64,000 nucleotides of DNA, from contig JBGAJA010000001.1 in assembly GCA_044225175.1 (NCBI GenBank), positions 206,114 through 270,113 of the forward strand, read 5' to 3'. Shown here piece by piece: positions 38,446 to 63,642 of the stretch; positions within the stretch are counted from its first letter, which is position 1, and the number at the start of each line of letters is the position of its first letter. Source of the stretch: Candidatus Omnitrophota bacterium (GTDB lineage Bacteria; Omnitrophota; Gorgyraeia; Zapsychrales; Fredricksoniimonadaceae). Both the position numbers and the translations under genes were made by a program. Below the pieces are notes generated by a model. The model did not search any database. It saw only the letters and a program-made list of their open reading frames with translations, and was not told the origin of the DNA.

Positions 38446-39989
<1,544 letters not shown>

Positions 39990-40180
39990 TATTCTATTAC
40001 AGGATAGAAACGAAAATTTCATCGTCAACGAAATGTTTAAGCATAATAAGTAAATCAAGATCTTCTCTTTGAAGTTCTTGGCTTTCAAAAATTTTAGAAC
40101 TGCTCGTTGAAACAATGAGCGATCATTGTTTCAACGGGTTTGTTTTCCAAGTGGTCAATCCACTGGCTAAGCCGTATAAC

Positions 40181-40254
40181 GGGCCCGTAGCTCAGATGGT
40201 TAGAGCGCGTCCCTGATAAGGACGAGGTCAGTGGTTCGATCCCCCTCGGGCCCA
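40181..40254 (+). tRNA. tRNA-Ile (anticodon GAU)
   Basis: Cloverleaf GGGCCCGTAGCTCAG...CTGATAA... in the 16S–23S spacer. CCA is not encoded. One U·C mismatch in the T-stem. Confidence 0.85.
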
Positions 40255-40264
40255 TTTATTTCGA

Positions 40265-40341
40265 GGGGCCGTAGCTCAGTTTGGTAGAGCGCCTGCTTTG
40301 CAAGCAGGAAGTCAAGAGTTCGATCCTCTTCGGCTCCACCA
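40265..40341 (+). tRNA. tRNA-Ala (anticodon UGC)
   Basis: GGGGCCGTAGCTCAG...TTTGCAA... with the G3:U70 identity pair. CCA is encoded. Confidence 0.9.
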
Positions 40342-40472
40342 TTTTTTATACGGACTAAATGAATGAACAATAGATGTTAAGCATAGATTTGGATCTCGTT
40401 ACTGACGAGATCGACATGCTCTTTGACAATTATGAAATATAGGGTAATACAATTTCGAGTAGTTTTCGTGTT

Positions 40473-43431
<2,959 letters not shown>

Positions 43432-43488
43432 TATATTAAAATTTGCTTGGGTTGAATTATCCTATATTTCATAATTGTCGTTATCTAT

Positions 43489-43603
43489 TGCGGTAACATT
43501 ACTTGTGGGGCAACACCCGTTCCCTTTCCGAATACGGAAGTTAAGTCCACAGAGGTCGATGGTACTGTAGTCGCAAGGCTATGGGAGAGTAGAACGTTAC
43601 CGC
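43489..43603 (+). rRNA. rrf: 5S ribosomal RNA
   Basis: Terminal helix GCGGTAAC.../...GTTACCGC. Conserved CCGAATACGGAAGTTAAG and GAGAGTAGAACG. Confidence 0.9.
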
Positions 43604-43611
43604 TTTTCTTT

Positions 43612-47600: not shown

Positions 47601-47637
47601 AATTCTTTTGGAGCATCGACCAAACTTCTTGGTATTT

Positions 47638-47726
47638 GGAGAGGTGGCAGAGTGGTCGAATGCGGCGGTCTCGAAAACCGTTGTCCGGCGTAAGTCGGAT
47701 CCAGGGTTCAAATCCCTGCCTCTCCG
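47638..47726 (+). tRNA. tRNA-Ser (anticodon CGA)
   Basis: GGAGAGG acceptor stem, long variable arm, anticodon loop CTCGAAA, T-arm CAGGGTTCAAATCCCTG. CCA is not encoded. Confidence 0.85.
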
Positions 47727-47734
47727 TTGAAAGA

Positions 47735-48382
47735 CATATGGGACATATACGAAAAATTGGGGAAGTGTATTATATTGAATTTTTTGCTAGAGGATTGATG
47801 TATTCTCAGGTTGCAGGTCTAACTGAAGAAGGAGCCCGAGAGATGCTTGAAAAGATTGAGAGTAAGATCTCAGCAGGGGAAGCTTTAACGATTGTCAGGC
47901 AAATTAATTTAGATGTTTTTTTTGAGAGGTATCTAGAAGATGTTCATGATCAATTTTCTTCAAAAAGTATTGAGCGTTTTTCTTCGGCCTGGAGAAGTCT
48001 ATTGAATTTTCTAAACAAAAATTATCCGGAAGTTTATCAGTTGTCTCAAATCACGCCATTTTTAATTGAGTCGTATAAAGCCTATTTAATTCCATTAGAA
48101 ACGCCTAAGATTGTCAATTTCACTCTGCTTTTGTTAAGGGAAATTTTTGAGTACGGTATTAAGATTGGGTTTTTAAACGACAATCCATCCTTACATGTCA
48201 CATTGTTGAAAATGACACCATCACCTTTAAGAAAGGGTGCCCGTTCCCAGATAGCAAAAGAATTATTAACTAACGGAGTAATATTAGGAAAAATTTATCA
48301 AGTTCTAAAATTGAAAGATGTGGCTCAGGTCATGTTTTGGTCAAATTTTATTCCCCTGAAAAGGGAAGATGTGTATAATTAA
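47735..48382 (+). pseudogene. Truncated tyrosine-recombinase (phage-type integrase): N-terminal arm-binding and SAM-like core-binding domains only
   Basis: GEVYYIEFFARGLMYSQVAGLTEEGAREMLEKIESKISAGE is the AP2-like integrase N-terminal domain, and ...SQITPFLIESYKAYL the core-binding domain. The ORF ends at the start of the catalytic domain, so no RHRY catalytic residues are present. It sits 8 nt after the tRNA-Ser. Confidence 0.6.
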
Positions 48383-49117: not shown

Positions 49118-50293
49118 ATGAGTGAGAATCAAGACATTGCTTTTAGTGCAGATTTAAGACCTGGTGGGAAAGAGGAATTGTTTGAGAATTTGAATGATTT
49201 TCAAATATGGCTAAATGTCGAACGAGAATTTTGGAACTGGATGGAAGTTCTGAGACAGAAGAATCCTAATGCTCACCACTACATTAATAGCTACTATCAG
49301 AGGTTAAATCAAATACAGGCTCATTTAGAAGCTACTCTTAATAATACAAATATTCCTCATCATCGGGGTCAATTAATTCAGGTTCTACAGAATTATTATC
49401 AAAAAAATCAATTAATTCACTCCTCACAACCCCGAGCAAAGTTTCTCAAAGAAATATTTGAAAAAGATCCAGCCCACGCTGTTTATACTTTGAAATTTTT
49501 TATTGATCGTAGATTTAATCAAGATACACCAGGAGAAATTGAAGGTTCTTTCTCTGCACTATTGTTTGAACATAATGTTAAGGATAGTAATAAAGGAGAA
49601 ACAAAAGCCCTGGAAGAACTTCGTGATTTGTGGCAAATACATCTAAATAATTCTAAGACAGATTTAACAAATATAACAAACGATTATGCGAACACTCTAA
49701 TAAAGCTTCAAGATCAAAAGAATGAAGAGAAGAAAAAATTTGAAGAATTATTAGGTAAAGCAGAAAAAGAACATGAGCAACGTATTGAAAAAGTGAAACA
49801 ACGCTTTAAAGAAATTGAAGACCTCTATGAGAAAAAATTAGCGCTTCATGCTTCAATTAAATATTGGGGAGAGAAAGCGAAAAGTCATTTTAGATGGTCG
49901 ATAGGGTTTACTATAGCTACTCTCGGGGGGTTTTATATTGCAGGGAATTGGTTATATAACATTATGAGATCAGTGATAGGAAATGCAACAATCAAAGACC
50001 TAGAAGTATGGAAAATAGGGTTGCTGTTAATTGCAGCGACAATAGGTGTTTGGATAACACGGGTTTTAATAAGATTGTTGTTAAGTAATGTTCATTTATG
50101 GAATGATGCCAATGAGCGAAGGACAATGATTCAAACATACTTGGCCTTACATAATGAAGGCAAAATGCCTGACCAATCACGAGAATTGATTCTTCAGGCT
50201 TTGTTTCGTCCTACAAGCACGGGTATAGTAAAGGATGATGCAGCTCCTCCTTTTATGGCTGAATGGTTAAAGAGAACAACAGGGGCCGACTAA
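49118..50293 (+). CDS. Hypothetical protein: N-terminal helical/coiled-coil domain, two transmembrane helices, short C-terminal tail
   Basis: 391 aa. Transmembrane helices near residues 255–275 and 290–315. Convergent with the TIR gene. Confidence 0.5.
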   Translation: MSENQDIAFSADLRPGGKEELFENLNDFQIWLNVEREFWNWMEVLRQKNPNAHHYINSYYQRLNQIQAHLEATLNNTNIPHHRGQLIQVLQNYYQKNQLIHSSQPRAKFLKEIFEKDPAHAVYTLKFFIDRRFNQDTPGEIEGSFSALLFEHNVKDSNKGETKALEELRDLWQIHLNNSKTDLTNITNDYANTLIKLQDQKNEEKKKFEELLGKAEKEHEQRIEKVKQRFKEIEDLYEKKLALHASIKYWGEKAKSHFRWSIGFTIATLGGFYIAGNWLYNIMRSVIGNATIKDLEVWKIGLLLIAATIGVWITRVLIRLLLSNVHLWNDANERRTMIQTYLALHNEGKMPDQSRELILQALFRPTSTGIVKDDAAPPFMAEWLKRTTGAD

Positions 50294-50342
50294 TGACTTT
50301 AAGGAATACAAGAATTTTATAGAAAATAAGCAATTTTGAGAA

Positions 50343-51695
50343 TTAAAAATGCTGCAATGAACTAAAAGGAGTGCTTCCTTCTCGAGGGGCATTTCCGTTT
50401 ATATAAACTTTCCACAAAACCACGTATTGAGCCCTATTCTGCCATTTATCAAAATTTAAAGAGTAAATGAGGTTGGATATTCCGTTTTCTCCAAATATTC
50501 GTATTTTCTTGCCTGGTAAAAGGAATTTATTAAATTCTTTTTTACCGCTATCTGGTAGAGCGGAATAGTCAAATATAAGATTTAAATAGCCAGGGTTATC
50601 CCGTGATTCACTCGACGTTAAATGAGGGTATTCCCATTTTTTCTTTTCCATATATTCACTAGGAAATTGAAGTTCAATAACAATATTTTTAAATTCTTCT
50701 TTTGTCTTATTTTCGATTTCAAGAAGGAAAGAATATTCGTGTAACTCTGAGGTTTGTTTCAAGGTTTTATAGGTTACTTCTACGTTGGCAGATGATGCGA
50801 TTGGAGAATATCCTTCTTTTAATTTGAGGAGTTCTGTTAATTCGTCTGGTTGCATAGTGTAGGTATTATTTGGAATTCCAAATTGTTCACATATTTTCTT
50901 ACAACTACTTAAAAGATCGGTTGAATCGAATAGTGTTATCCCTTGTGTAACTAAATTTAAAGGTGATCCAAATTCAGTTGGTGATATATTGGTATACATA
51001 GGATAGATTTTAAAACCTCGACCCCAAACGGCAGCGGATTCCCACCATACCCAAGAAGACTCCTGAGCCAATCGAGAGCAAATAGGAATTATAGCCTCTG
51101 CATTTTTTAAATTGGTTTCTAACATAATTTTTAGAGGGTCATCGCCAGGTTGTATACTACGTCTTGCGATAAATATCTCTGCCTTATCTTGAGTAAATTT
51201 TCTAAGTATTTTTTTTATGAAATCAGCTAAAGCGAGTTCTTCACTGGCATAACTGATAAAGATTATAGGGAGTTGTTGAATGGGGCACCTCTCTTTTATA
51301 TATCTAATTTTTTCTTCTGCAATTTCTTTTGTTTGTGAGGTTACACGTATTAGGCCCTCTTTCTTAAAGGGTGTATAAATGAAGGTGCATCTTGGGCTAT
51401 TATTCGTTGTTCCACTTATGCAAATATCATAAGTTAATTCTTGTTTGTATGCTTGAATAAGTTCAGCCAGGCTACTTACGGTGTGTTTAATGCCATCTGC
51501 GCTGTGCCAATAAGCAGTGATCCCACCAATAACATGTGGGTAACCAGGGAAGCCTTGAAACTCTTTACCCCAAGTTTGATCAAAAATTTCAAATAGTTGA
51601 TCTGAGGTTAGAATTTCGGGGGAAAATCCAATATAAGATAAGGTTACGCTGCTTTTCATTTTTGATAATATACTGCGCAAGACTTCAAAGGTCAA
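50343..51695 (-). CDS. TIR-domain protein with unknown N- and C-terminal domains (candidate defence or NADase effector)
   Basis: The central PIIFISYASEELALADF...AIIPICSRLAQESSWVWWESAAVW matches the TIR βA (FISY) and SxW...E motifs. The tracked start is TTG; an alternative ATG lies at 51659. Confidence 0.6.
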   Translation of the reverse strand: MTFEVLRSILSKMKSSVTLSYIGFSPEILTSDQLFEIFDQTWGKEFQGFPGYPHVIGGITAYWHSADGIKHTVSSLAELIQAYKQELTYDICISGTTNNSPRCTFIYTPFKKEGLIRVTSQTKEIAEEKIRYIKERCPIQQLPIIFISYASEELALADFIKKILRKFTQDKAEIFIARRSIQPGDDPLKIMLETNLKNAEAIIPICSRLAQESSWVWWESAAVWGRGFKIYPMYTNISPTEFGSPLNLVTQGITLFDSTDLLSSCKKICEQFGIPNNTYTMQPDELTELLKLKEGYSPIASSANVEVTYKTLKQTSELHEYSFLLEIENKTKEEFKNIVIELQFPSEYMEKKKWEYPHLTSSESRDNPGYLNLIFDYSALPDSGKKEFNKFLLPGKKIRIFGENGISNLIYSLNFDKWQNRAQYVVLWKVYINGNAPREGSTPFSSLQHF

Positions 51696-51795: not shown

Positions 51796-51916
51796 CTCTC
51801 CCATTTGCAAGGGGTTTTTGGGGAAAAGCACCCAAAACTGTTCCCGACCCCACTCCCTCAACCATAGGTTAAGCGGAGGGACTGGGGTCGGGAACTACCA
51901 ATTGCAAATGGGAGAG
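51796..51916. repeat. Nested inverted-repeat structured element (perfect 15-bp outer inverted repeat plus 20-bp inner hairpin)
   Basis: Outer ctctcccatttgcaa / ttgcaaatgggagag. Inner gttcccgaccccactccctc–loop–gagggactggggtcgggaac. An additional ttttggg/cccaaaa hairpin lies between. Confidence 0.6.
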
Positions 51917-52509: not shown

Positions 52510-52766
52510 TTTTAAATCTTTACCAACCGTTTTAATCAAATCCGCAGGTGGTTTGTCTCTGGTGCAGACAGGTTAGGCACATTCATTAGTTCAAGAGTTC
52601 GTATTCGTACGCTCCCGCATCCTTTCGATTGTTTTTTCGATTCTGTCATACGTATCAAGGACTACGCCCCACATAAAGCCTGTGAGGCTTGCAAGTGCTC
52701 CGCTCCGCTTCGCATCCTTGACACGTATGCCTTTAGATAATTAAAAAAATCGAAAGGAAACTCACT

Positions 52767-53285
52767 ATGCAAAACACACAAACAACACCAAAAATCTATG
52801 TAGCTTGTCTGGCAGCTTACAATAATGGTTTCTTACATGGTAAATGGATTGAAGCCAATCAGGAAGCAGAAGCTATCTATAAAGAGATACAAGAAATGTT
52901 AGCCAAAAGTCCTATAGCTGGTGCAGAAGAATGGGCTATCCATGATTATGAAGGCTTCATGGGTTTACAGTTATCAGAGTCTGAGGATATTGTTACTGTA
53001 GCAAGCATAGCGGTTATGTTAGAAAAGCATGGAGAAGCTTGGGCATTGTTTACGGAACATGATGGCATAGAATACGCCACAGAAGAGAGATTTGAAGAAG
53101 CGTATGAAGGTGAGTGGGATTCAGAAGAAGATTTTGCTGAAAATTTGGCTAGTGAGACTATGGAAATTCCGAAGCATTTAGAATTTTACATAGATTACGG
53201 GAAACTAGCCTATGATCTTTTCATTAACGATTATTTTTCTGCGGAAGGAAGTAGCCATAAGGTTCATGTATTTAGAAGGCTTTAA
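52767..53285 (+). CDS. ardA: Antirestriction protein ArdA
   Basis: KIYVACLAAYNNGFLHGKWIE...EEWAIHDYEGF and C-terminal LEFYIDYGKLAYDL are collinear with Tn916-type ArdA. Strongly acidic. Confidence 0.8.
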   Translation: MQNTQTTPKIYVACLAAYNNGFLHGKWIEANQEAEAIYKEIQEMLAKSPIAGAEEWAIHDYEGFMGLQLSESEDIVTVASIAVMLEKHGEAWALFTEHDGIEYATEERFEEAYEGEWDSEEDFAENLASETMEIPKHLEFYIDYGKLAYDLFINDYFSAEGSSHKVHVFRRL

Positions 53286-54235: not shown

Positions 54236-55630
54236 ATGCGAAATAAAGTTTTGATTGCCATCTGGTTATTAGCGCCAGGATTGGTATGGGCAGGAGACAA
54301 GGAGTCGGTATCTTCAGGGAATATGAAGAATTTATCTGAAGTGCAGCACATCGTTAAAGATAGAAGTGCCTACTCTATTAAAGAACAACCTTTAAGCGTG
54401 AAGGGGCCCCTAGATGAAGAGCAGGCCATTAGTTTATCTTTAAACAATAATTTAGTGCTTAAAGCATTATTTGAGAGATACGCAGTAGATAGGGCTGATA
54501 TCATAGGAGAAAGTTTATTAAAAAATCCTAAATTTTCTTATTCATCTAGAAAATCCAATGAGCCAGACACCAAAAGGGATACGGAATGGCAAATTAAAGT
54601 TGATGCTTTGGATTTATTATTGTGGCCTTTAAAGAAACAAGCACAACATCGTCAGATTAAATCCGCTGAATTTATGGTGGCTTCCAAGGTTTTGGATTTT
54701 ATCAAAGAGGTAAAAGTAAATTTTTATCATCTACAAGAAGCGCAGGCAGTAATGGATTCTTATGAAGATGATATGCAAGCCCAGCAGACCATCTTAGATT
54801 TAGCCAAAGGAATGTATGGAGCAGGAAACAGCAATATTCTTCAATGGCAAAAAGCACAGGTCGTATTTCATGAATCAAAATTAGGCTACTTAGATGCGAA
54901 ACGTGATTTAGCTATAGCTAGAGAAAATTTAAACTTGCTCTTAGGTTTACCTAAGGGGGAAGATGATTGGAAAATAAATAGCCAATTTAAAGATATTGCT
55001 TTTAGTGAACCTGAATTAACAAAACTTAATCAGATGGCACAAGAGAACCGTCTGGAAATTATTATTGCTAAAGCCCAGATTGGTATTTTAAGCAATAAGC
55101 TGACCATGGCTCGGGCTGGACTTTTGCCGTCATTCGAAGTCGGTTATGATCAAGAACGTGAAGCTAGTGGCAATAAACTCAAAGGCATGGTGTTGGAAAC
55201 GGACGTACCAATTTTTAATTTTAATCAAGCAGGAATGTTACGGTATGAATCACTTTTAAGCGAATCAAAGATTAACGTACCAGCAGTAGAAGCCTTGGTA
55301 ACTAAAGAAGTTAATGTGGCTTATCAGGAGTTAATTACAGCAAGGGCTAAAGTTGAAAATCTTCAAGAAGTCTTACCGCTCTATCAGCAAATGACTAGAG
55401 AGACGCTGTATCATTACAATTTTATGTTAAAAGATGTTTTTTCTGTGTTAGAAGCCAAAAGTGTACAGTTAAAAGCAAAGTCAGAATTTGCTAAAGCTAT
55501 GAGTGAATATTGGCAGGCACGGACTGAATTAGAACATGCGGTGGGGCATACTTTGTCATATACACCCTTAGTTCAAAAAACAGTTGAAGAACAAAAGACT
55601 AACGAAGCTGAACATCATCATGGAGGCTAA
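54236..55630 (+). CDS. Outer-membrane efflux protein (TolC/CusC family) with His-rich C-terminus
   Basis: Signal peptide. Two-repeat OEP-like helical/β pattern. Ends ...EAEHHHGG. Confidence 0.65.
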   Translation: MRNKVLIAIWLLAPGLVWAGDKESVSSGNMKNLSEVQHIVKDRSAYSIKEQPLSVKGPLDEEQAISLSLNNNLVLKALFERYAVDRADIIGESLLKNPKFSYSSRKSNEPDTKRDTEWQIKVDALDLLLWPLKKQAQHRQIKSAEFMVASKVLDFIKEVKVNFYHLQEAQAVMDSYEDDMQAQQTILDLAKGMYGAGNSNILQWQKAQVVFHESKLGYLDAKRDLAIARENLNLLLGLPKGEDDWKINSQFKDIAFSEPELTKLNQMAQENRLEIIIAKAQIGILSNKLTMARAGLLPSFEVGYDQEREASGNKLKGMVLETDVPIFNFNQAGMLRYESLLSESKINVPAVEALVTKEVNVAYQELITARAKVENLQEVLPLYQQMTRETLYHYNFMLKDVFSVLEAKSVQLKAKSEFAKAMSEYWQARTELEHAVGHTLSYTPLVQKTVEEQKTNEAEHHHGG

Positions 55631-55631
55631 T

Positions 55632-56834
55632 ATGTTTAAGTGTTTAATAATGTTTTTAATGCTTATAGTTTCATCAAGTAGTACATCATGGGCGCAGCCA
55701 TTGTCCTATACTCCTGTCATCACGCCTAATGGCAGTACAATGCCGTGGACATTGGCCAAGGATGGAGTTAAAGAGTTTCATATCACCGTTGGAGCATGTC
55801 AACATGAAATAGCACCTGGTATGACTATCAATGCCTGGTGTTATAACGGTCAAACGCCAGGGCCAACGATTGAAGTCGTTGAAGGAGATAGAGTAAGAAT
55901 TTTTGTTAAGAATGAACTACAAGAAGGTACGGCTGTTCATTGGCATGGAGTATTCTTGCCCAACGGTATGGATGGTGTTTCAGGTTTGACACAAAAATCC
56001 ATAGAACCAGGACAGACGTTCAAATATGAATTTACCTTAAAACAGCACGGAACGTTTATGTATCATTCCCACGGCGATGAAATGACACAAATGGGCTTAG
56101 GTACTATGGGCTTCTTTATTGTTCATGCTAAAGATGAACCCAAGGTTGATCGTGATTTTGCAATTTTCTTAAATGAATGGTTTGTTGAGCCAGGCACAAA
56201 AACACCCAATCCGAATATTATGACGGACTTTAATATTTTTACTTTCAATAGCCGAGCATTTCCTGGAACAGCTCCTTTGGTCGCTAAAACTGGAGATAGG
56301 ATAAGAATTCGTATAGGTAATGTTGGTCAAGAATCTCACCCTATTCATTTGCATGGGTATGCTTTTAAAGTAGTCGCAACTGATGGGGGAGATATTCCAC
56401 AATCAGCCCAATATCCAGAAACAACGGTTGTAACCTTTCCTGGTCAGACACGCACAGTTGAATTTGTCGCCAATGCTCCTGGTGATTGGGCACTGCATTG
56501 TCATCGTAGACATCATCCGATGAATGCCATGGGGCATGATGCAGCCAATGTACTAGGGGTTAATCAAGATAGCGTTAAAGATACTATCCGTAAACTTGTT
56601 CCTGGGTATATGCCGATGGGAGAAAACGGTATGGATGAGATGAACTACATGCAAATGAAAGGCCCAGCAAATACTCTGCCTATGATGGGTGGTCAAGGTC
56701 AATTTGGCCCCACAGGCATGGGAGGCATGTTCACAGTCTTTAAAGTTAGGGATAATCTTAAAGATTATGATAACCCTGGAGAATATCCTCATCCAGCGGG
56801 AACAGTTGCAAGTGTAATCGAAGATAAAAAATAA
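55632..56834 (+). CDS. Multicopper oxidase with Met-rich C-terminal region
   Basis: Copper-site motifs HWHG, HPIHLHG, HCHRRHHPMNAMG. C-terminal MPMGENGMDEMNYMQMKG...MMGG. Signal peptide. Start at the ATG after ggagg. Confidence 0.8.
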   Translation: MFKCLIMFLMLIVSSSSTSWAQPLSYTPVITPNGSTMPWTLAKDGVKEFHITVGACQHEIAPGMTINAWCYNGQTPGPTIEVVEGDRVRIFVKNELQEGTAVHWHGVFLPNGMDGVSGLTQKSIEPGQTFKYEFTLKQHGTFMYHSHGDEMTQMGLGTMGFFIVHAKDEPKVDRDFAIFLNEWFVEPGTKTPNPNIMTDFNIFTFNSRAFPGTAPLVAKTGDRIRIRIGNVGQESHPIHLHGYAFKVVATDGGDIPQSAQYPETTVVTFPGQTRTVEFVANAPGDWALHCHRRHHPMNAMGHDAANVLGVNQDSVKDTIRKLVPGYMPMGENGMDEMNYMQMKGPANTLPMMGGQGQFGPTGMGGMFTVFKVRDNLKDYDNPGEYPHPAGTVASVIEDKK

Positions 56835-56859
56835 CAATCATCAAAGAAAGGAAATACGT

Positions 56860-57204
56860 ATGAAAAATAGAACCATAACAATATTAGTTGCAGGTAGTAT
56901 TTTGATGTTAGGAGGCTATTCTTTTGCTCAAGAAGCAGATCATGGCCAGGTTATCAGTGATAAGCAGGCTATGGAAGATATTGCTGCAAAGAAGGCTGTA
57001 GAAGTTGGCAATACAATTTGTCCTGTAAGTAAAGAAGAGATTCCTGCACCGGGTAAAGAAGGCCCAATGGGCGGGGCTATTAAATATGAATACAATGGTA
57101 AGATTTATAATCTATGCTGCAAGATGTGTGTAAAGGATTTTAAAAAAGATCCTGAGAAATATAGCAAAATTGCAGAAGATCAAGCTAAAACTGTCCAGAA
57201 ATAA
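56860..57204 (+). CDS. Periplasmic YHS/TRASH-domain metal-binding protein
   Basis: Signal peptide. ICPVSKEEI...YEYNGKIYNLCCKMCVKDFKKDPEKY matches the YHS pattern. Confidence 0.6.
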   Translation: MKNRTITILVAGSILMLGGYSFAQEADHGQVISDKQAMEDIAAKKAVEVGNTICPVSKEEIPAPGKEGPMGGAIKYEYNGKIYNLCCKMCVKDFKKDPEKYSKIAEDQAKTVQK

Positions 57205-57264
57205 TTGTTAGTTGATTAGCGGGTGGGAAAATTTGATTCCCACTCGCTATCTAAAGGAGAATTT

Positions 57265-57690
57265 ATGTTGGAACAACTGTTTCCCATACATCCCAAGCTT
57301 GTGCATTTTCCTATTGCTTTATTTATGACTGCATTTGCTTTGGATAGTTTAAGCTGGATTTTTCGTAAGGAACATTTACATAACACAGCAATAGTTATTT
57401 ATGTATTTGCGGCGTTATTCACTCCTCTAGTTGTCTGGACAGGGTTGTTTGAGCAACAGAGACTTCATTTGAATCATCCTGTCCTTAATCAACATAAATT
57501 ATACGCTTTTGGGACGATGTGGATTTCTTTAGCTTCATTACCTGTTTTATGGTTTTTGAAAAAGTTTTTTTCTAGAAATTTTAGAATAATATTTACATTG
57601 CTGCTTTTAAGTTTGGCAATACTGGTTACAGTTACAGGGCATTTTGGTGGACGTATGGTTTATGAATATGGAGCAGGAGTACAGAATTAA
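57265..57690 (+). CDS. Membrane protein (DUF2231-like, four transmembrane helices)
   Basis: Hydrophobic helices. Start trimmed to MLEQLF. Confidence 0.45.
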   Translation: MLEQLFPIHPKLVHFPIALFMTAFALDSLSWIFRKEHLHNTAIVIYVFAALFTPLVVWTGLFEQQRLHLNHPVLNQHKLYAFGTMWISLASLPVLWFLKKFFSRNFRIIFTLLLLSLAILVTVTGHFGGRMVYEYGAGVQN

Positions 57691-57710
57691 GATAGACTGA
57701 AATTATTCTC

Positions 57711-57742
57711 TTGACTCTCCACCATACTGGAAGGTGTATAGT
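57711..57742 (+). promoter_or_regulatory. MerR-type promoter: TTGACT, 20 nt spacer, TATAGT, with a GGAAGGT half-site in the spacer
   Basis: ttgactctccaccatactggaaggtgtatagt. The over-long spacer is typical of MerR/CueR-controlled promoters. It sits upstream of the MerR-family gene. Confidence 0.5.
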
Positions 57743-57768
57743 TTTATTAGATAACAAGGGAGATAAAA

Positions 57769-58167
57769 ATGTTTATCGGTGAACTCAGTAAAGAGACAGG
57801 TATTCCAGTTAAGACAATACGGTATTACGAAGAGTTTGGGCTTTTACATAAGCCGAAAAGATCAGTGTCTCAATACCGTATTTATAATCATAAAGACCTT
57901 GAAAAACTTTTATTTATCAAGAAGTCTAAAGATTTGGGGCTAACCTTAGCTGAAATAAAAAAAATCATCAAACGTAGCAGTAGTGGAGTTGAGGCAACGT
58001 GTTGTTTAGTCCATGAAGTTTTTGAAGAAAAAATAGCTGATTGTGAACAAAGAATCAAAGAATTAAAAGAAACTAAGAAGCGCTTAAGCGAACGGCTTCA
58101 CCATTGGATAACAACCAGTGAAGCTAAGAAATTAAAATTTACAATTTGTCCTCAAATTGATAAGTAA
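57769..58167 (+). CDS. MerR-family metal-responsive transcriptional regulator (CueR-like)
   Basis: N-terminal MFIGELSKETGIPVKTIRYYEEFGLL HTH, dimerisation coiled coil, C-terminal Cys-containing tail. Confidence 0.75.
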   Translation: MFIGELSKETGIPVKTIRYYEEFGLLHKPKRSVSQYRIYNHKDLEKLLFIKKSKDLGLTLAEIKKIIKRSSSGVEATCCLVHEVFEEKIADCEQRIKELKETKKRLSERLHHWITTSEAKKLKFTICPQIDK

Positions 58168-58313
58168 GATGGTTCAAATGAGGCTAACAGTATTTAAAAT
58201 TAAGTAGTTTTACTTAGATTTGCGAGTATGTTTCCGTACAGTATTTTTTTGTCTGTAGTGTTATTTTAGTTAAATAAAAATTTAAGGGTAATCTTTTATA
58301 AGGAGGTGGTTTT

Positions 58314-58964
58314 ATGCATGGAGATGAATTAGGGAGTTATGCCTATGGTATGTGGCCTGTGGTAATTTTTAACATACTTATTTTTTCTTTTTTTATCATT
58401 AGTTTTGTTAAGCCTCAAGGCAAAGTCGAATGGGCTTCTATGGGTGCTTTCATAGGATTTATCGTCGCTTTATTTACAGAAATGTACGGCTTTCCGTTGA
58501 CGATTTATCTCTTGTCAACCTGGATGGGGAAATCATATCCAGTTTTAAATCCATTTTCTCATAATCATGGTCATTTATGGCTGGTTTTGTTGGGGTTGGC
58601 TGATTCTGCATGGGCGATGACTCTTCTACATATAGTGAGCAATGGCATGATTCTTATCGGTTTTTATATAATTCAGAAGGGCTGGGTGCTTATCCATGCC
58701 GCAGCCGGCAAACGTTTGGTAACAGAAGGTATTTATGCTCATATACGACATCCTCAATATAGTGGGATGTTTTTGATAACCTTAGGTTTTCTTTTGCAAT
58801 GGCCTTCGATATTAAGTCTGGTGATGTGGCCTATTTTGATGTTCGCCTATTATCGTCTGGCTATGAAGGAAGAAAAAGACGTTCAGAAAATATTCGGGAA
58901 ACAATATGAGGAATACAGGAAGACAGTTCCTGCATTTATTCCTAAATGGGGAGGTACAAAATGA
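58314..58964 (+). CDS. Isoprenylcysteine carboxyl methyltransferase (ICMT/PEMT)-family membrane methyltransferase
   Basis: LVTEGIYAHIRHPQYSGMFL... is the family signature. Confidence 0.65.
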   Translation: MHGDELGSYAYGMWPVVIFNILIFSFFIISFVKPQGKVEWASMGAFIGFIVALFTEMYGFPLTIYLLSTWMGKSYPVLNPFSHNHGHLWLVLLGLADSAWAMTLLHIVSNGMILIGFYIIQKGWVLIHAAAGKRLVTEGIYAHIRHPQYSGMFLITLGFLLQWPSILSLVMWPILMFAYYRLAMKEEKDVQKIFGKQYEEYRKTVPAFIPKWGGTK

Positions 58965-59113
58965 CAAATACAATGTTTATTCTTATTGTGTTTATAGTTC
59001 TAATTGCTTTCATGATGATGAGAAAAGGCGGTGGAGGTTGTTGCGGTGGTCATCATGATGAAAAATCTGAAACAGATAAAAAAGAGGATGATAGGAAGCA
59101 CGGGTGTCATTAA
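58961..59113 (+). CDS. Small membrane peptide (50 aa) with GGGGCCGGHH and C-terminal HGCH motifs
   Basis: Not in the ORF track (under 60 aa). ATG overlaps the upstream stop (ATGA). One transmembrane helix then the Cys/His tail. Confidence 0.5.
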   Translation: MTNTMFILIVFIVLIAFMMMRKGGGGCCGGHHDEKSETDKKEDDRKHGCH

Positions 59114-59157
59114 CGGGAATTATCTAAAGATTGTAAAACTTGGAAAGGAGGATTGAA

Positions 59158-59409
59158 ATGAAAAATCATAATCATGGTTTATGGATGATGCTCTGTTGCA
59201 TTTTGCCTTTATTGGCAATTTTTCTGTTGCCGGGCTTTGGAGCTAGGGGTAATTCTTCAATTCTATTCTTTGTCATTATGATGTTTGCTTGTCATTTTAT
59301 GATGATGGGTGGTCATCAGCATGGTGAAGAGAATACTGACAATAAGACAGAGAATGAAGAAGATAAAAATAAAGAACACAAGGAAGGGGGTCATCATGGG
59401 TGTCATTAA
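59158..59409 (+). CDS. Small membrane protein with CC and C-terminal GGHHGCH motif, paralogous tail to the 58961 peptide
   Basis: RBS aaaggagg. MKNHNHGLWMMLCCILPLL... ending ...GGHHGCH. Confidence 0.55.
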   Translation: MKNHNHGLWMMLCCILPLLAIFLLPGFGARGNSSILFFVIMMFACHFMMMGGHQHGEENTDNKTENEEDKNKEHKEGGHHGCH

Positions 59410-59686
59410 TATTAAAAGATTCGGACTAGCGGTTGGTTTAACTCTGGTTTTTTTACGTCTGGGGTGCATCATTGTGTTTTTAATGACAACTAGGGAACAG
59501 GCAGTAGTTTTTTTTAATACTCTTTTGCATGGGATCGATGTTAGTTCGATATTAAAGACTGAAATGTCTGTCTTAGAGATGGTATTTGGACTGATTCAGA
59601 TATTTATTTTAGGGTGGTTAACAGGAGCAACAATAGCTAGTATTTATAACTTTAGTTTTAATAAAAAGAAAGGGTGTTGCATATGA
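59396..59686 (+). CDS. Small membrane protein ending in KKKGCCI
   Basis: ATG at 59396 preceded by ggaaggggg. Three hydrophobic segments. I rejected the ORF tracker's N-terminal extension at 59309, which overlaps the upstream gene. Confidence 0.4.
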   Translation: MGVINIKRFGLAVGLTLVFLRLGCIIVFLMTTREQAVVFFNTLLHGIDVSSILKTEMSVLEMVFGLIQIFILGWLTGATIASIYNFSFNKKKGCCI

Positions 59687-59820
59687 AAAACAATATTATA
59701 GGTATCATAGTATTTGCTATTTTAATAGTCTCAGGATTAGCCTTTGCTCATACGATGGGAATGGGTGGCGGTTGTTGCGGTGGTGCTCATCATACCTGTA
59801 GTCTGCATCACGCTCAGTAA
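59683..59820 (+). CDS. Small membrane peptide (45 aa) with MGMGGGCCGGAHH motif
   Basis: Not in the ORF track. One transmembrane helix plus a GGGCCGG.HH tail like the 58961 peptide. Confidence 0.5.
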   Translation: MKNNIIGIIVFAILIVSGLAFAHTMGMGGGCCGGAHHTCSLHHAQ

Positions 59821-59886
59821 TAAGAAAATGATAATGTATAATAGACAACAAATGAAGCTGTTGTTAACTAGAGAAAGGTAAAGTTT

Positions 59887-60309
59887 ATGAAAAACAGTAT
59901 CGCAGTATTCACAGCAATTGTAGTTTTAACCGTTTCAGGATTGGCCTTAGCCCAAATGAATGATAAGGGCAAAGAAATGATGGGGGACAAAACAGGAATG
60001 ATGGAGGGTAAAGGCGGCATGATGGGAATGATGGGTGGTAAAGGGATGATGGGTATGATGGGAATGTGTCAGTCCATGATGAACAAACCGTCTGTGGTTG
60101 CGGTTGGTGATGGAGTGGTTGTTTTATCAGGTAAAAAACTCTATAAATATGATGCCAATCTCAATTTAATTAAAGAAGCTGATGTTAAGGTGGAAGAGAT
60201 GGGAATGATGGGTGGGGATATGATGGGCAAAGGTAAGATGGATGCTGATGATAAAGAATCAGCAGAAGAGGCGGCTAAACATGCATCACATCATCCAGAA
60301 CAAAAATAG
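59887..60309 (+). CDS. Periplasmic methionine-rich copper-binding protein
   Basis: Signal peptide, then repeated [10 protein letters not shown] motifs and a His-rich C-terminus. Confidence 0.7.
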
Positions 60310-60326
60310 TCAAAGAGGGCTTATTT

Positions 60327-62600
60327 ATGGTTAAGGACCCCGTATGTGGAATGATGGTTGATCCATCAAAAGCGATCCATGCCTCTGTTGGGGGCATGGA
60401 TCACTATTTCTGTAGTACACACTGTAAAGAGAAGTTTCTAAGCAAGATTCAAGTGCCTGTGCCTGAAGCTAAATTTAATGGGAAAGCCATTTACACTTGT
60501 CCCATGCACCCTGAAATTAAGCAAGATCATCCAGGCGATTGTCCAAAATGCGGTATGCATTTGGAGCCACTCAACCCCACAGGTGGAGGAAATGAAGATC
60601 AAAAAGAGATTCATTCATTATCTCAAAAGTTTTGGATTGGCCTTACACTAACAATACCTTTGGTATTGTTAGTGTTGGGGGATATGATTCCAGCTGTCAA
60701 TCTTCAAGCATTCCTGCCTCAACATTTATTACCATTTTTACAATTAGCTTTAGCTACTCCTGTAGTTTTATGGACAGGGTGGATGTTTTTTGTTAAAGGC
60801 TGGCAATCTGTAATTAATAAAAGTCTTAATATGTTTACACTGATTGCTATTGGTGTTGGTGCAGCTTATGGGTACAGTACCATCGCAACTTTGTTTCCTC
60901 AAATTTTTCCTGAATCGCTTAAAAAAATGGGCAAGGTTGATCTCTATTTTGAAGCAGCAGCCGTCATCACAGTTTTAATTATTTTAGGACAATTATTAGA
61001 AGCTAAGGCTCGTAGTCAAACAGGTCAAGCTATCAAAGCACTTTTGGGGTTAGCTGCTAAGAATGCTCATCGCATTCAAAATGGAGTTGAGCAAGAAGTA
61101 GCTATTGATTCTGTTCAAAAAGGAGATTTGCTTAGAGTCCGTCCTGGAGAAAAAGTTCCTTTAGATGGTGTTATTACTGAAGGTCATAGTAGTATTGATG
61201 AATCGATGATTTCAGGTGAGCCAATTCCAGTTGAGAAGAATATTGGTGATCGAGTGATTGGTGCAACTGTTAACCAAACTGGCAGTTTTGTCATGAAGAC
61301 AGAAAGGGTGGGGGCAGAAACATTGCTGTCTCAAATTGTTCACATGGTTGCTGATGCTCAACGCAGTCGTGCTCCTATTCAAAAACTTGCTGACACTATA
61401 TCTGGTTATTTTGTTCCTGTTGTTATTTTGATTTCCGCTTTAACTTTTATTATTTGGTTGAATTGGGGGGTAGAGCCAAAGTTAGCATATGCGATTGTTA
61501 ATGCTATCGCAGTATTGATTATTGCTTGCCCGTGTGCTCTTGGCTTAGCTACACCTATGTCTATTATGGTTGGTGTTGGTCGTGGCGCACAAGCAGGAAT
61601 TTTAATTAAGAATGCTGAGGCTATTGAAAAATCTGAGAGAATTACCCATGTTCTAACCGATAAAACAGGAACACTGACCGAAGGTAAACCAAGGGTTACA
61701 ACTTGTGTCCCGAGTCGGGGCATAGATGAACAGCAACTTATAGGCATGGCTGCATCTATAGAACAAAGTAGCGAACATCCGTTAGCTCGTGCTGTGATTG
61801 ATTATGCAAAAGAAAGAAAAGTCAATTTGCAAGCTGTGCAGGATTTTGAATCGATTACAGGTGGTGGTATTAAGGGCAAGATCAATGGACAAGTGATTAT
61901 TTTGGGAAAGCAAAAATTTATTGAAGATCAAAAGATTACAATACCTGATGATTTAAAAAATAAAGCTGAACAATTACAAGAGAAGGCGCAGACTGTGGTT
62001 TGGTTAGCTGCTGATCAAAAAGTGATGGGAATGCTTGGAATTTCTGATCCTATTAAAAAATCAACTCCAGAGGCAATCGAAGCTCTTCATAAAATGGGGA
62101 TTAAGGTTGTGATGTTAACAGGAGATAATCAAAAGACAGCGGAAGTTATTGCTAAGGAACTTAAAATTGATGATGTTCGAGGGCAGTTAGAGCCAAAGAG
62201 TAAACAAGAGATAGTTAAAGAATTCAAATCCAAAGGTGCTGTAGTCATGATGGCAGGAGATGGTATTAATGATGCTCCAGCTTTGGCGCAAGCAGAGGTT
62301 GGTGTTGCGATGGGGACAGGAACAGATGTTGCTATTGAAAGTGCAGGAGTAACCTTGGTTAAAGGCGATCTTAACGGTATTGTTAAAACTTTACGATTAA
62401 GTAGAGCTGTTATGAAAAATATTCGTCAGAACTTATTTTTTGCATTTATTTATAATGTGTTGGGGATTCCTGTAGCCGCAGGTATTTTGTATCCTATTTT
62501 TGGCATTCTTTTAAGTCCCATTATCGCTGGCGCTGCGATGAGTTTCGGTTCAGTATCTGTTATTGGTAATGCTTTAAGGTTAAAGCGGTTGAGTTTTTGA
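60327..62600 (+). CDS. copA: Copper-translocating P1B-type ATPase with N-terminal TRASH/YHS and CPxH-type metal-binding domains
   Basis: DPVCGMMVD...YFCSTHC (TRASH). [26 protein letters not shown]. Transmembrane CPC motif. [21 protein letters not shown]. Confidence 0.9.
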
Positions 62601-62871
62601 TCTCAAGATAGATATTTGTTAAAAATATAGTATTTGAAAAAATATCAAATACTTCTTGACATTTAATAAAATATTTGTTGACAAATATTTTTGATCTGGT
62701 AATATTGTTTTCAGCAATTAGGAATAGTTGATTGCTACCGATTTCCCCGATCGGTTTAAGTAGTAGAAATTCCCCGAAGTTTGTTTTTATAGTTTAATTC
62801 AATGCTCAATTTCTTTTACCCCAAATCAAAGAAGTTGAACTCACAAGGTGCATTTTTTGTAAAAAGGACGC

Positions 62872-63642
62872 TTGTTTATGCGTGCGATTCCGCAAAAAAT
62901 TCAAATCTTGAAGTTCATAGGGGAACAGGGAATTGTTACTCTCTCTGATGTATCCCGCCATTTATTTAGTGAAGATAAGCTTTCTTATGTACGGGTTACT
63001 ATGTATGAGCTAGGTATAGCTCACAAAAAATACCCAGATGTAGCTAATGGTGTTTGGTTTATTGATAATCCAAAACTTTATGAGCTATTGAGTCTTTATT
63101 TTCCTGATTTTCCGCAATTAGAAGTCAAACCCTTTACCCTACATAAAATCCCACATAGTTTAGAAATAAACCGTATCCGCAGTACATTTACTCAATCCCA
63201 TCTTATTACAATTGATGAATGGTGGTCAGAAAGGTTGATCTGGGCATTGCCTGTTTCCCATCGTGAAGATTTTTGTAGCGATAAAGTCCCTGATGCTATT
63301 TTTTGGCGTAGACGTAAGGATGGTAGCCGACAAAAATATTTTCTTGAATATGAACGCACTTTAAAGAGTAAAGAGCGTTACGAAGAGATTTTTCGCTCTT
63401 ATGCCAAGTGTAAAGATGTCAAAGACCGCAATGTCATCTACATTTGCCAGACTCTGCGTATTAAAGAAGAGCTTCAAGACATAGAAGAACGCTTAGTCAA
63501 AGCAGGTCGATTAGCTGATGTTGCTCTCTATTTTCAATTCATTACCCTCGAAGGCTTTTATAAAACACATTCAAACCACAATTTAAAGGAGGAAGTAAAC
63601 CATGAACAAACTCAAAAAGTATACGCAAACGTATCTGTTTAA
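62872..63642 (+). CDS. Hypothetical winged-helix-like protein (possible mobile-element replication, relaxation or regulatory protein)
   Basis: N-terminal ILKFIGEQGIVTLSDVSRHLF is wHTH-like. Preceded by an inverted-repeat-rich intergenic region. Confidence 0.35.
   Translation: MFMRAIPQKIQILKFIGEQGIVTLSDVSRHLFSEDKLSYVRVTMYELGIAHKKYPDVANGVWFIDNPKLYELLSLYFPDFPQLEVKPFTLHKIPHSLEINRIRSTFTQSHLITIDEWWSERLIWALPVSHREDFCSDKVPDAIFWRRRKDGSRQKYFLEYERTLKSKERYEEIFRSYAKCKDVKDRNVIYICQTLRIKEELQDIEERLVKAGRLADVALYFQFITLEGFYKTHSNHNLKEEVNHEQTQKVYANVSV

Follow-up and report, generated by a model that had tools for sequence, protein, structure and literature searches.

We propose, with moderate confidence and from sequence comparison, that a long imperfect hairpin lying directly upstream of an ardA gene is a candidate single-stranded DNA (ssDNA) promoter for that gene. 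The hairpin lies in a 64,000-nucleotide (nt) stretch of a Candidatus Omnitrophota genome (contig JBGAJA010000001.1; the whole stretch is referred to as the window, and positions are those of the window). The proposal was reached because the hairpin is conserved and covaries, folds in the template strand of ardA, carries an invariant −10-type motif, is reused before other genes, and stands where an ordinary promoter is lacking. Such promoters explain how anti-defence genes can be expressed by incoming conjugative DNA before it becomes double-stranded. Those that we found with experimental support belong to the IncF and IncI plasmids of enterobacteria; elsewhere, candidates are named by resemblance. 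The comparative evidence described here (covariation, strand-specific wobbles and the invariant −10-type pattern) points to the same logic, in a shorter design, in a distant uncultivated group.

Structure and conservation of the hairpin

In an initial annotation, made from the sequence alone, the gene downstream of the structured region was called ardA, and this was borne out by Pfam. The hairpin and the elements assigned to it are as follows.

52620..52758, minus strand: main hairpin (hp2), about 140 nt, imperfect, with two nested inverted repeats and a branched tip; folds best in the minus strand
52620..52635, minus strand: outer stem P1, left arm; partner 52743-52758; 16 nt, 94% complementary
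52743..52758, minus strand: outer stem P1, right arm; the plus strand holds the ardA Shine-Dalgarno (SD) sequence AAAGGA (52753-52758)
52647..52661, minus strand: inner stem P3, left arm; partner 52715-52729; 15 nt, 93% complementary
52715..52729, minus strand: inner stem P3, right arm; TTGACA on the plus strand at 52718-52723
52666..52688, minus strand: apical hairpin Hb (helix 3); 52666-52673 pairs with 52681-52688
52640..52648, minus strand: candidate extended −10, TGACAGAAT; TG at 52647-52648, hexamer CAGAAT at 52640-52645
52653..52658, minus strand: −35-like box TTGATA, 6-8 nt (7 in most copies) upstream of the hexamer
52738..52750, plus strand: predicted transcription start zone, placed from the hexamer position and the A-rich 7-9 nt behind it
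52767..53285, plus strand: ardA, the gene downstream of the hairpin; Pfam ArdA PF07275, E = 4e-38
52520..52585, no strand assigned: upstream block cTGCCAGyCGTTTTaatCAaATCCGCAGGTGGTTTkTCTCTGGTGC; conserved in sequence, part of the cassette in a subset of the loci

The right end of the hairpin is 8 nt short of the ardA ATG (52767). The inner repeat had been described in the initial annotation and is present as stated; the outer repeat that encloses it had been overlooked. The internal hairpin named there (aagcc...ggctt) is not the conserved one, since the apical helix that covaries is that of Hb. The branched tip consists of Hb plus a small hairpin (52690-52694 / 52710-52714), and in almost every copy the base of the stem reads CCTTTCGATTCT / AGAATCGAAAGG. 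As for the direct repeat reported earlier (tcgatt twice), TTTCGATT does occur twice in the window, at 52623 and 52635, but the second copy is window-specific, related loci having a single copy.

The region is indeed relatively GC-rich (0.43-0.47, compared with 0.29-0.38 in the flanks), and it folds better than shuffled controls. Relative to dinucleotide shuffles, the z score of positions 52510-52766 as DNA was −3.4 for the plus strand and −4.2 for the minus strand (all 257 nt), and reached −6.3 for the minus strand of the core, 52612-52766. A sliding-window scan placed hp2 second among the structures of the genomic island in which it lies.

More than 2,200 ArdA homologues were found, the nearest loci coming from metagenome contigs and from metagenome-assembled genomes (MAGs) with Omnitrophota or Planctomycetales labels. 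The hairpin occurs at the same place 5' of ArdA in 18 distinct loci of these uncultivated bacteria (the window, L001-L006, L052, L053, L055, L057, L058, L132, L134, L136, L137, L140 and L141), with ArdA identities of 61-95%; it is thus kept upstream of ardA homologues in related elements. A profile hidden Markov model and a covariance model were made from 16 copies, and both recover all 18 loci. At two loci with ArdA at about 60% identity, L059 and L143, the hairpin is absent upstream.

Covariation was examined on an alignment whose structure, of 36 pairs, was derived from the folds of the individual sequences. Of the cells, 86% were paired, against 29-51% when the partners were slid by 1-3 columns. 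Changes on both sides were seen for 16 of the 36 pairs, and the observed covariation was reached by none of 500 shuffles. In the outer stem P1 (helix 1), 87.5% of the cells are paired and six pairs have changed on both sides; the inner stem P3 (helix 2) is paired in 90% of its cells, and in Hb six of the seven pairs have changed on both sides. The lower inner stem exists in three unrelated versions with pairing kept: CATACG/CGTATG, ACCACC/GGTGGT and CACATGCCA/TGGCATGTG.

The upstream block at 52520-52585 occurs in the window, L001, L004, L053, L134 (two copies) and L136. No conserved structure emerged when one was sought in this block. In other loci the upstream block is a different one (…CCGCCTCAATATTTGC…).

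Folding strand and promoter-like elements

When the 18 loci were folded with DNA parameters, the minus strand was the more stable in 16, and in the other two the strands were within 0.3 kcal/mol. The minus-strand folds contained 36 G.T pairs and a single A.C mismatch, while the plus-strand folds contained 18 G.T pairs and 14 single A.C mismatches. The inner stem P3 alone had 15 G.T cells, spread over five columns, and zero A.C cells. A column-wise count on a MAFFT alignment appeared balanced at first (27 G.T vs 29 A.C), but its A.C cells were traced to the unpaired SD end of P1, to a one-base misalignment of L137 and to the non-homologous tip of a subgroup, and the asymmetry persists within the reliable helices. 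This asymmetry, with wobbles on the minus strand and mismatches on the plus strand, indicates that the strand selected to fold is the minus strand, that is, the ardA template and not the mRNA-sense strand.

The gene layout bears on which strand is transferred. The ardA gene lies upstream of the trb/virB genes and points the same way as they do in the window (on the plus strand), in L134/L135 and in L140. The trbC gene has a MobC-family gene in front of it in the window and in L134/L135, and no such gene was identified in L140. In F and IncI1, such a layout goes together with a template strand that is the transferred strand. The gene order of IncI1 was examined, and the layout here is consistent with the F/IncI1 type. 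By analogy, and provided that oriT lies upstream of mobC, the minus strand would be the one transferred and ardA would be in the leading region.

When the minus strand folds, the candidate −10 comes to lie on the 3' arm, within a weakly paired stretch where the arms are not properly complementary. The pattern TGnNAnnAT is kept on this arm in all 19 copies, the TG, A2, A5 and T6 being invariant. Positions 1, 3 and 4 of the hexamer, which are less critical, vary (CATAAT, CACAAT, TACAAT, TAGAAT, CAAGAT, CATGAT, AAAAAT and, in L055, TATAAT); L055 thus carries the consensus TGGTATAAT. TGnNAnnAT is the pattern expected of an extended −10 in sigma-70 promoters. Spacing is fixed on the arm that bears the motif, and the length of the opposite arm varies by several bases. 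The motif arm would act as the non-template strand, with the polymerase copying the 5' arm outward into ardA. The hexamer is followed by the A-rich 7-9 nt and then by the outer stem, whose template arm encodes AGAAUCGAAAGGAG, i.e., the 5' untranslated region (5' UTR) with the SD sequence; the right arm of P1, in the minus strand, would template this 5' UTR.

The initial annotation had suggested looking for −35 and −10 elements rebuilt only in the folded form. A motif of the −10 type was found, but not a properly spaced −35, the TTGATA box being only 6-8 nt away. Boxes of the form TTGAYA recur in other hairpins of these elements. A −10 located 16-18 nt from the TTGAYA box was either not present or not conserved, on both strands. 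For TTGACA of the plus strand (52718-52723), no hexamer with T6 was seen 16-18 nt downstream in 16 loci tabulated by eye. The inner stem measures 17 nt in 18 of 19 copies (the row of L055 was blank and was not read), and because of this length the −35 position falls in the branched tip.

Ordinary promoters were also looked for. No canonical sigma-70 promoter was present on the plus strand within 400 nt upstream of ardA in 16 of the 18 loci. A canonical promoter does stand upstream of mobC (TTGACA-16-TAATAT, conserved in the window and L134), and a TG-extended candidate ahead of the 16S gene fits the sigma-70 pattern. In L054 (1530-1675) and L056, the left arm of the hairpin has been lost, the right arm and ardA are retained, and the unrelated DNA that replaces the left arm contains TTGACA-17-TATACT (11/12). 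The upstream sequences of these two loci are identical and were counted as one variant. We read it, from the sequence, as a natural exchange of one type of promoter for another.

The hairpin is also used before genes other than ardA. In L134/L135, a second full copy, together with the same upstream block, precedes a gene for an acidic 152-aa protein, and in L055 a copy precedes the gene for a homologous 158-aa protein. This family may be entered as follows.

L134 7483-8098 and L055 1-601: acidic 152-158-aa protein family (MQTVNTEIPKMSINELEAYIDLRYEAGAPQDELEALE...), with its own hairpin copy

No Pfam or NCBIfam family matched these proteins, which are candidate early or anti-defence products. 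Smaller and larger relatives of the hairpin were located at L055 731-813, L134 9462-9572 and L134 8267-8500. All carry a TCAAGG/CCTTGA (or TCATGG/CCATGA) box; the smaller ones precede small open reading frames (ORFs), and the larger one precedes a SpoVG-like gene. Five hairpins of L134 stand out from the background (−38 to −54 kcal/mol, the background being −14 ± 6); they are clustered in the 3 kb ending at ardA, and for all of them the minus strand is at least as stable. It may be noted that, by a hand alignment, the mini hairpin at L055 731-813 would have TTGATA-16-TAAAAT, properly spaced, on its minus-strand 3' arm.

The proposed sequence of events is this. During conjugation, the minus strand, which is the template of ardA, would enter the recipient single-stranded, and positions 52620-52758 would snap back into the long hairpin. 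The 3' arm, in the role of non-template strand, would then offer the extended −10 (TGACAGAAT) in a weakly paired, partly pre-opened stretch, and RNA polymerase would copy the 5' arm outward across the stem base. The resulting ardA mRNA would start about 20-30 nt before the ATG, so as to include the ribosome-binding site and to exclude its pairing partner. Once the complementary strand had been made, the hairpin would be gone, and expression would stop because the duplex would have no usable promoter facing ardA. Both initiation by RNA polymerase at the hairpin and the position of the start are inferred.

Several observations weigh against the proposal. The hexamer often has only four of the six consensus bases, as does CAGAAT in the window. 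A −35 at 16-18 nt from the hexamer was sought and was either absent or not conserved, and nothing is conserved in the sequence of the branched tip, where it would fall. Known ssDNA promoters are described as rebuilding both −35 and −10 (PMC9849209; PMC12672017). The plus strand, too, folds well as RNA: positions 52612-52790 gave −49.8 kcal/mol (z = −6.6), with AAAGGA paired. Among 114 assorted ArdA upstream regions the minus strand was the more stable in 90, and so the strand asymmetry may be partly compositional. In pLS20, whose establishment genes are preceded by a comparable GC-rich structured region, it is the non-template strand that is transferred (PMC8708921). Lastly, if a second hairpin of the island (hp1, described below) were the oriT, which it could be, ardA would be on the wrong side or at the wrong end.

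A wider reading is held more tentatively, as a possibility that we think will rather fail than hold: that these elements contain an undescribed class of ssDNA promoters, arranged as arrays of portable cassettes, with hp1 at the far end as a priming site. Members of the class would be about 140 nt long and without a spaced −35, with a branched tip and, exactly 17 nt below it, a TG-extended −10 in a stretch of weak pairing, and the arrays would stand before ardA and other early genes such as that of the acidic 152-158-aa protein. If this were true, the logic of ssDNA promoters would be no enterobacterial peculiarity but a general, independently evolved solution, and such hairpins could serve as a guide to new anti-defence genes of uncultured phyla. 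Confirmation of the proposed ardA promoter itself would widen the known range and the design rules of ssDNA promoters. It would also supply a sequence model (covariance model R1 and the nhmmer profile) for locating leading regions in integrative conjugative elements (ICEs) that lack a known oriT, and would flag the genes behind the sister hairpins as candidate early or anti-defence genes.

Alternative explanations and known systems

The stable plus-sense RNA fold could instead mean that the hairpin acts in the mRNA leader, where, in transcripts from an upstream promoter or from read-through, it would hide the ribosome-binding site and so control the translation of ardA, or prevent it for as long as the stem stays closed. 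The right arm of P1 holds the SD sequence in most loci, and the neighbouring genes are all on the same strand, which makes read-through possible. We nevertheless regard this explanation as unlikely. An RNA-level role does not account for mismatches that are A.C on the plus strand and G.T on the minus strand. Pairing of the SD sequence, which a sequestering leader or an RNA thermometer would call for, is not conserved, its core being unpaired in L001, L006, L132 and L141, and the hairpin of L057 ends 32 nt before the ATG; by our own reading of the sequence, that of L140 also stops well before the ATG and the SD sequence. The invariant and weakly paired TGnNAnnAT has no obvious role in RNA, and the upstream promoter is lacking in 16 of the 18 loci. 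A leader role may coexist with a promoter, as a secondary effect on read-through transcripts.

The invariant TCAAGG/CCTTGA box, which recurs in the other hairpins as a protein site would, is relevant to another possibility, namely a regulatory region, repeated before establishment genes, that resembles EGeRS1 of pLS20 or the repeated ArdK/ArdR regions of pKM101. Expression would then be governed by repressor operators (zygotic induction) or by some other mechanism in which the transferred strand is not the template. The description of EGeRS1 fits, since that region is GC-richer, has inverted repeats, occurs in copies 5' of ribosome-binding sites and has no strong ordinary promoter (PMC8708921); a helix-turn-helix gene is present in the element of L135. 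The stem positions beside the box, however, covary, and whole helices have been replaced with pairing kept, which argues for a nucleic-acid structure rather than a protein site. A duplex operator would also leave the strand asymmetry without explanation, and no repressor gene is consistently linked. We consider such a region quite unlikely; the operator array offered as an alternative in the initial annotation shares in this small probability, mainly on account of the box.

A template-strand hairpin with −10-like determinants is also what sso and Frpo have, and the folded transferred strand might recruit RNA polymerase or a primase for making a primer of the complementary strand, not an mRNA, as an origin of the ssi/sso type. 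Frpo has been reported to prime DNA synthesis too (PMC12672017), and several hairpins are clustered here. Yet nearly every copy of the hairpin is locked to the SD sequence and ATG of the gene behind it, and the hairpin has been duplicated before different genes, as a promoter would require and a priming site would not. A priming role would be better suited to the nearby hp1, and for hp2 we hold it to be decidedly improbable.

Very little probability is given to a cis-antisense RNA that would start on the minus strand, cross the ardA start, fold and control ardA: the minus strand is selected to fold and its RNA would complement the ardA 5' UTR, but sigma-70-like minus-strand promoters in the first 200 nt of ardA were not conserved (0 of 18 loci strong, two weak), no intrinsic terminator was found behind the hairpin, and no Rfam family matched. 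The small RNA considered in the initial annotation is left unsupported by the promoter and Rfam results. With Rfam 15, nothing appeared at the gathering threshold and only chance-level matches were seen at E up to 10; a tRNA/tmRNA search gave no gene at the hairpin site.

Two further candidates were tried and rejected. The core sites of an integron attC (RYYYAAC ... GTTRRRY) are absent at the stem base, and there is no GTTRRRY at the right end; the hairpin does not extend to the GTTAGGC at 52574, and this sequence is not kept in L004. A miniature inverted-repeat transposable element was rejected because every copy is at the same place relative to the gene start.

In the proposal of an ssDNA promoter, the closest comparison is with the enterobacterial systems. 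Frpo has been placed in class 1, and the hairpins 5' of ardA and klcA in IncI1 in class 2 (PMC9849209, PMC11541004, PMC12672017). The ardA gene of IncI1 is driven by a hairpin ssDNA promoter whose start site has been mapped, and in pESBL each induced operon of the leading region is preceded by a large hairpin (PMC12672017), a picture to which the reuse of hp2-like hairpins bears a resemblance.

Like the class 2 elements (IncI1/IncF, pESBL ardA/klcA; PMC12672017), hp2 is a large template-strand hairpin immediately 5' of ardA, has related copies before another gene (in class 2, one of the leading region), and has its candidate −10 on the 3' arm where the pairing is briefly interrupted (judged from our own fold of the IncI hairpin). 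Silence in the duplex form is likewise a property of class 2 and is here proposed from the sequence. The IncI hairpin differs in being about 250-300 nt long, as against about 140 nt here, and in having, by our own reading, a −35 TTGCAT about 15-16 nt from TAAGAT, where hp2 has a TG-extended −10 with the TTGAYA box at the short distance given above. The hosts also differ: here they are uncultivated bacteria that bear Omnitrophota or Planctomycetales labels, and hp2 belongs to an ICE that has a MobC-type relaxase gene. No sequence similarity to the IncI ardA upstream region (L144) was found by nhmmer or blastn.

With Frpo and ssi1-3 (F, ColIb-P9), hp2 shares the proposed mechanism and the occurrence of multiple copies before different genes (in the known systems, before operons of the leading region); in our own fold, Frpo also leaves bases unpaired on its 3' arm directly behind a box of the TTG type. 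Frpo is, however, a GC-rich element of about 330 nt that reportedly rebuilds the −35 as well as the −10. The nhmmer profile of the hairpin gave 0 matches in ColIb Frpo1 and F ssiD, and blastn gave only chance words of 8-11 nt. Similarity within class 1 is defined by Samuel et al. as BLAST E < 1e-6, and the hairpin shows none at that level, nor does it rebuild a −35 and a −10 at promoter spacing. A stable stem-loop in the template strand, one of the features expected of ssDNA promoters as a functional class, is present (z = −6.3, covariation, 16 of 18 loci, G.T/A.C asymmetry). We file the hairpin, on sequence grounds, as one that would work like an ssDNA promoter but outside class 1 and class 2, because it has neither sequence similarity to them nor a spaced −35. 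What the initial annotation called the ssDNA-promoter character of the region is thus supported by the covariation, the template-strand folding, the invariant −10-type motif, the reuse before several genes and the lack of an ordinary promoter upstream, and its assignment to the Frpo/ssi type is not, given the lack of similarity to Frpo, ColIb ssi or the IncI1 ardA hairpin and of a spaced −35. Among 72,556 plasmids, blastn with the 257 nt as query found no match, and a pattern scan of viral contigs for the outer stem gave 0 matches.

EGeRS1 of the pLS20 family (PMC8708921) is similar in being GC-richer than its surroundings, rich in inverted repeats and located right before the ribosome-binding site of anti-restriction and other establishment genes, in several copies per element and with no strong ordinary promoter. 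Its authors rejected the idea of an ssDNA promoter because pLS20 transfers the non-template strand (PMC8708921). EGeRS1 is 400-600 bp long, and in this respect, as in that of the strand, it differs from hp2, for which the distribution of mismatches speaks for a folded template strand.

The ssoA and ssoU origins of rolling-circle plasmids and ICEs are strand-specific, long imperfect hairpins with promoter-like elements that RNA polymerase finds only in folded ssDNA. Unlike hp2, an sso makes short primers and has no tie to a gene start. Of the conserved sso motifs RSB and CS-6, the latter (TAGCGT) was not seen on reading 52620-52758 by eye, no formal or model-based search having been made.

Genomic setting and neighbouring structures

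The hairpin and ardA are part of a genomic island that starts directly after a tRNA-Ser gene; this island beside tRNA-Ser is an ICE. The other features of the window are as follows.

38446-43605: rRNA operon, in the window along with serS
47637-47727: tRNA-Ser(CGA); the island starts directly after it
47636-48382: integrase-like ORF adjoining tRNA-Ser, 248 aa; only a phage-integrase SAM-like N-terminal domain, no catalytic domain match
51796-51916: second conserved hairpin (hp1), stronger than hp2, flanked by the divergent TIR gene and the 173-aa ORF; −62 kcal/mol as ssDNA, z = −9.7
62872-63642: MobC-family 'replication-relaxation' gene (mobC); NCBIfam E = 1.5e-9, under the curated cut-off

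Judged from this integrase-like ORF, the element may be unable to excise itself. The ORF is followed by genes for a DUF6161 protein and, on the minus strand, a TIR-domain protein, then by a 173-aa ORF whose family is not known, and by ArdA. Downstream of ArdA come a copper-resistance block (54236-62600), the MobC-family gene and, at the end of the window, a TrbC/VirB2 pilin gene. The DUF6161 and TIR-domain proteins (49118-51695), between the integrase remnant and the anti-defence gene, are possible defence cargo; at the equivalent position, L134/L135 have OLD/UvrD (Gabija-like), RES and HEPN genes.

The stretch 62601-62872, upstream of the MobC-family gene, is 77% identical to L134, which exceeds the identity of coding DNA, and contains AT-rich palindromes. 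It is likely the promoter/operator of the transfer operon and is also a candidate oriT.

The hairpin hp1 forms a three-way junction of 46 pairs, 20 of them with compensatory changes, nearly all Watson-Crick. It is conserved in L001, L002, L004, L053, L057, L134 and L136, and, wherever both hairpins could be placed (L001, L004, L134), it lies 200-320 nt to the left of the first cassette of the hp2 type. No Rfam family matched it. An oriT-type large inverted repeat, a site for second-strand priming and a non-coding RNA are the candidate identities of hp1.

In the Omnitrophota contigs L137-L139 (9800-10522), the unit of hairpin and ardA stands right behind chromosomal genes (enolase, DivIC-like), and ardA is the first gene of an island rich in restriction-modification and defence genes. 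Many of the 114 assorted ArdA upstream regions had z scores below −5, and structured template-strand leaders before ardA may be widespread. At L111 5654-5818, directly 5' of an ArdA of 49% identity, there is a long hairpin that is unrelated in sequence and has an internal tandem duplication; it carries TGATAAGAT on the corresponding arm.

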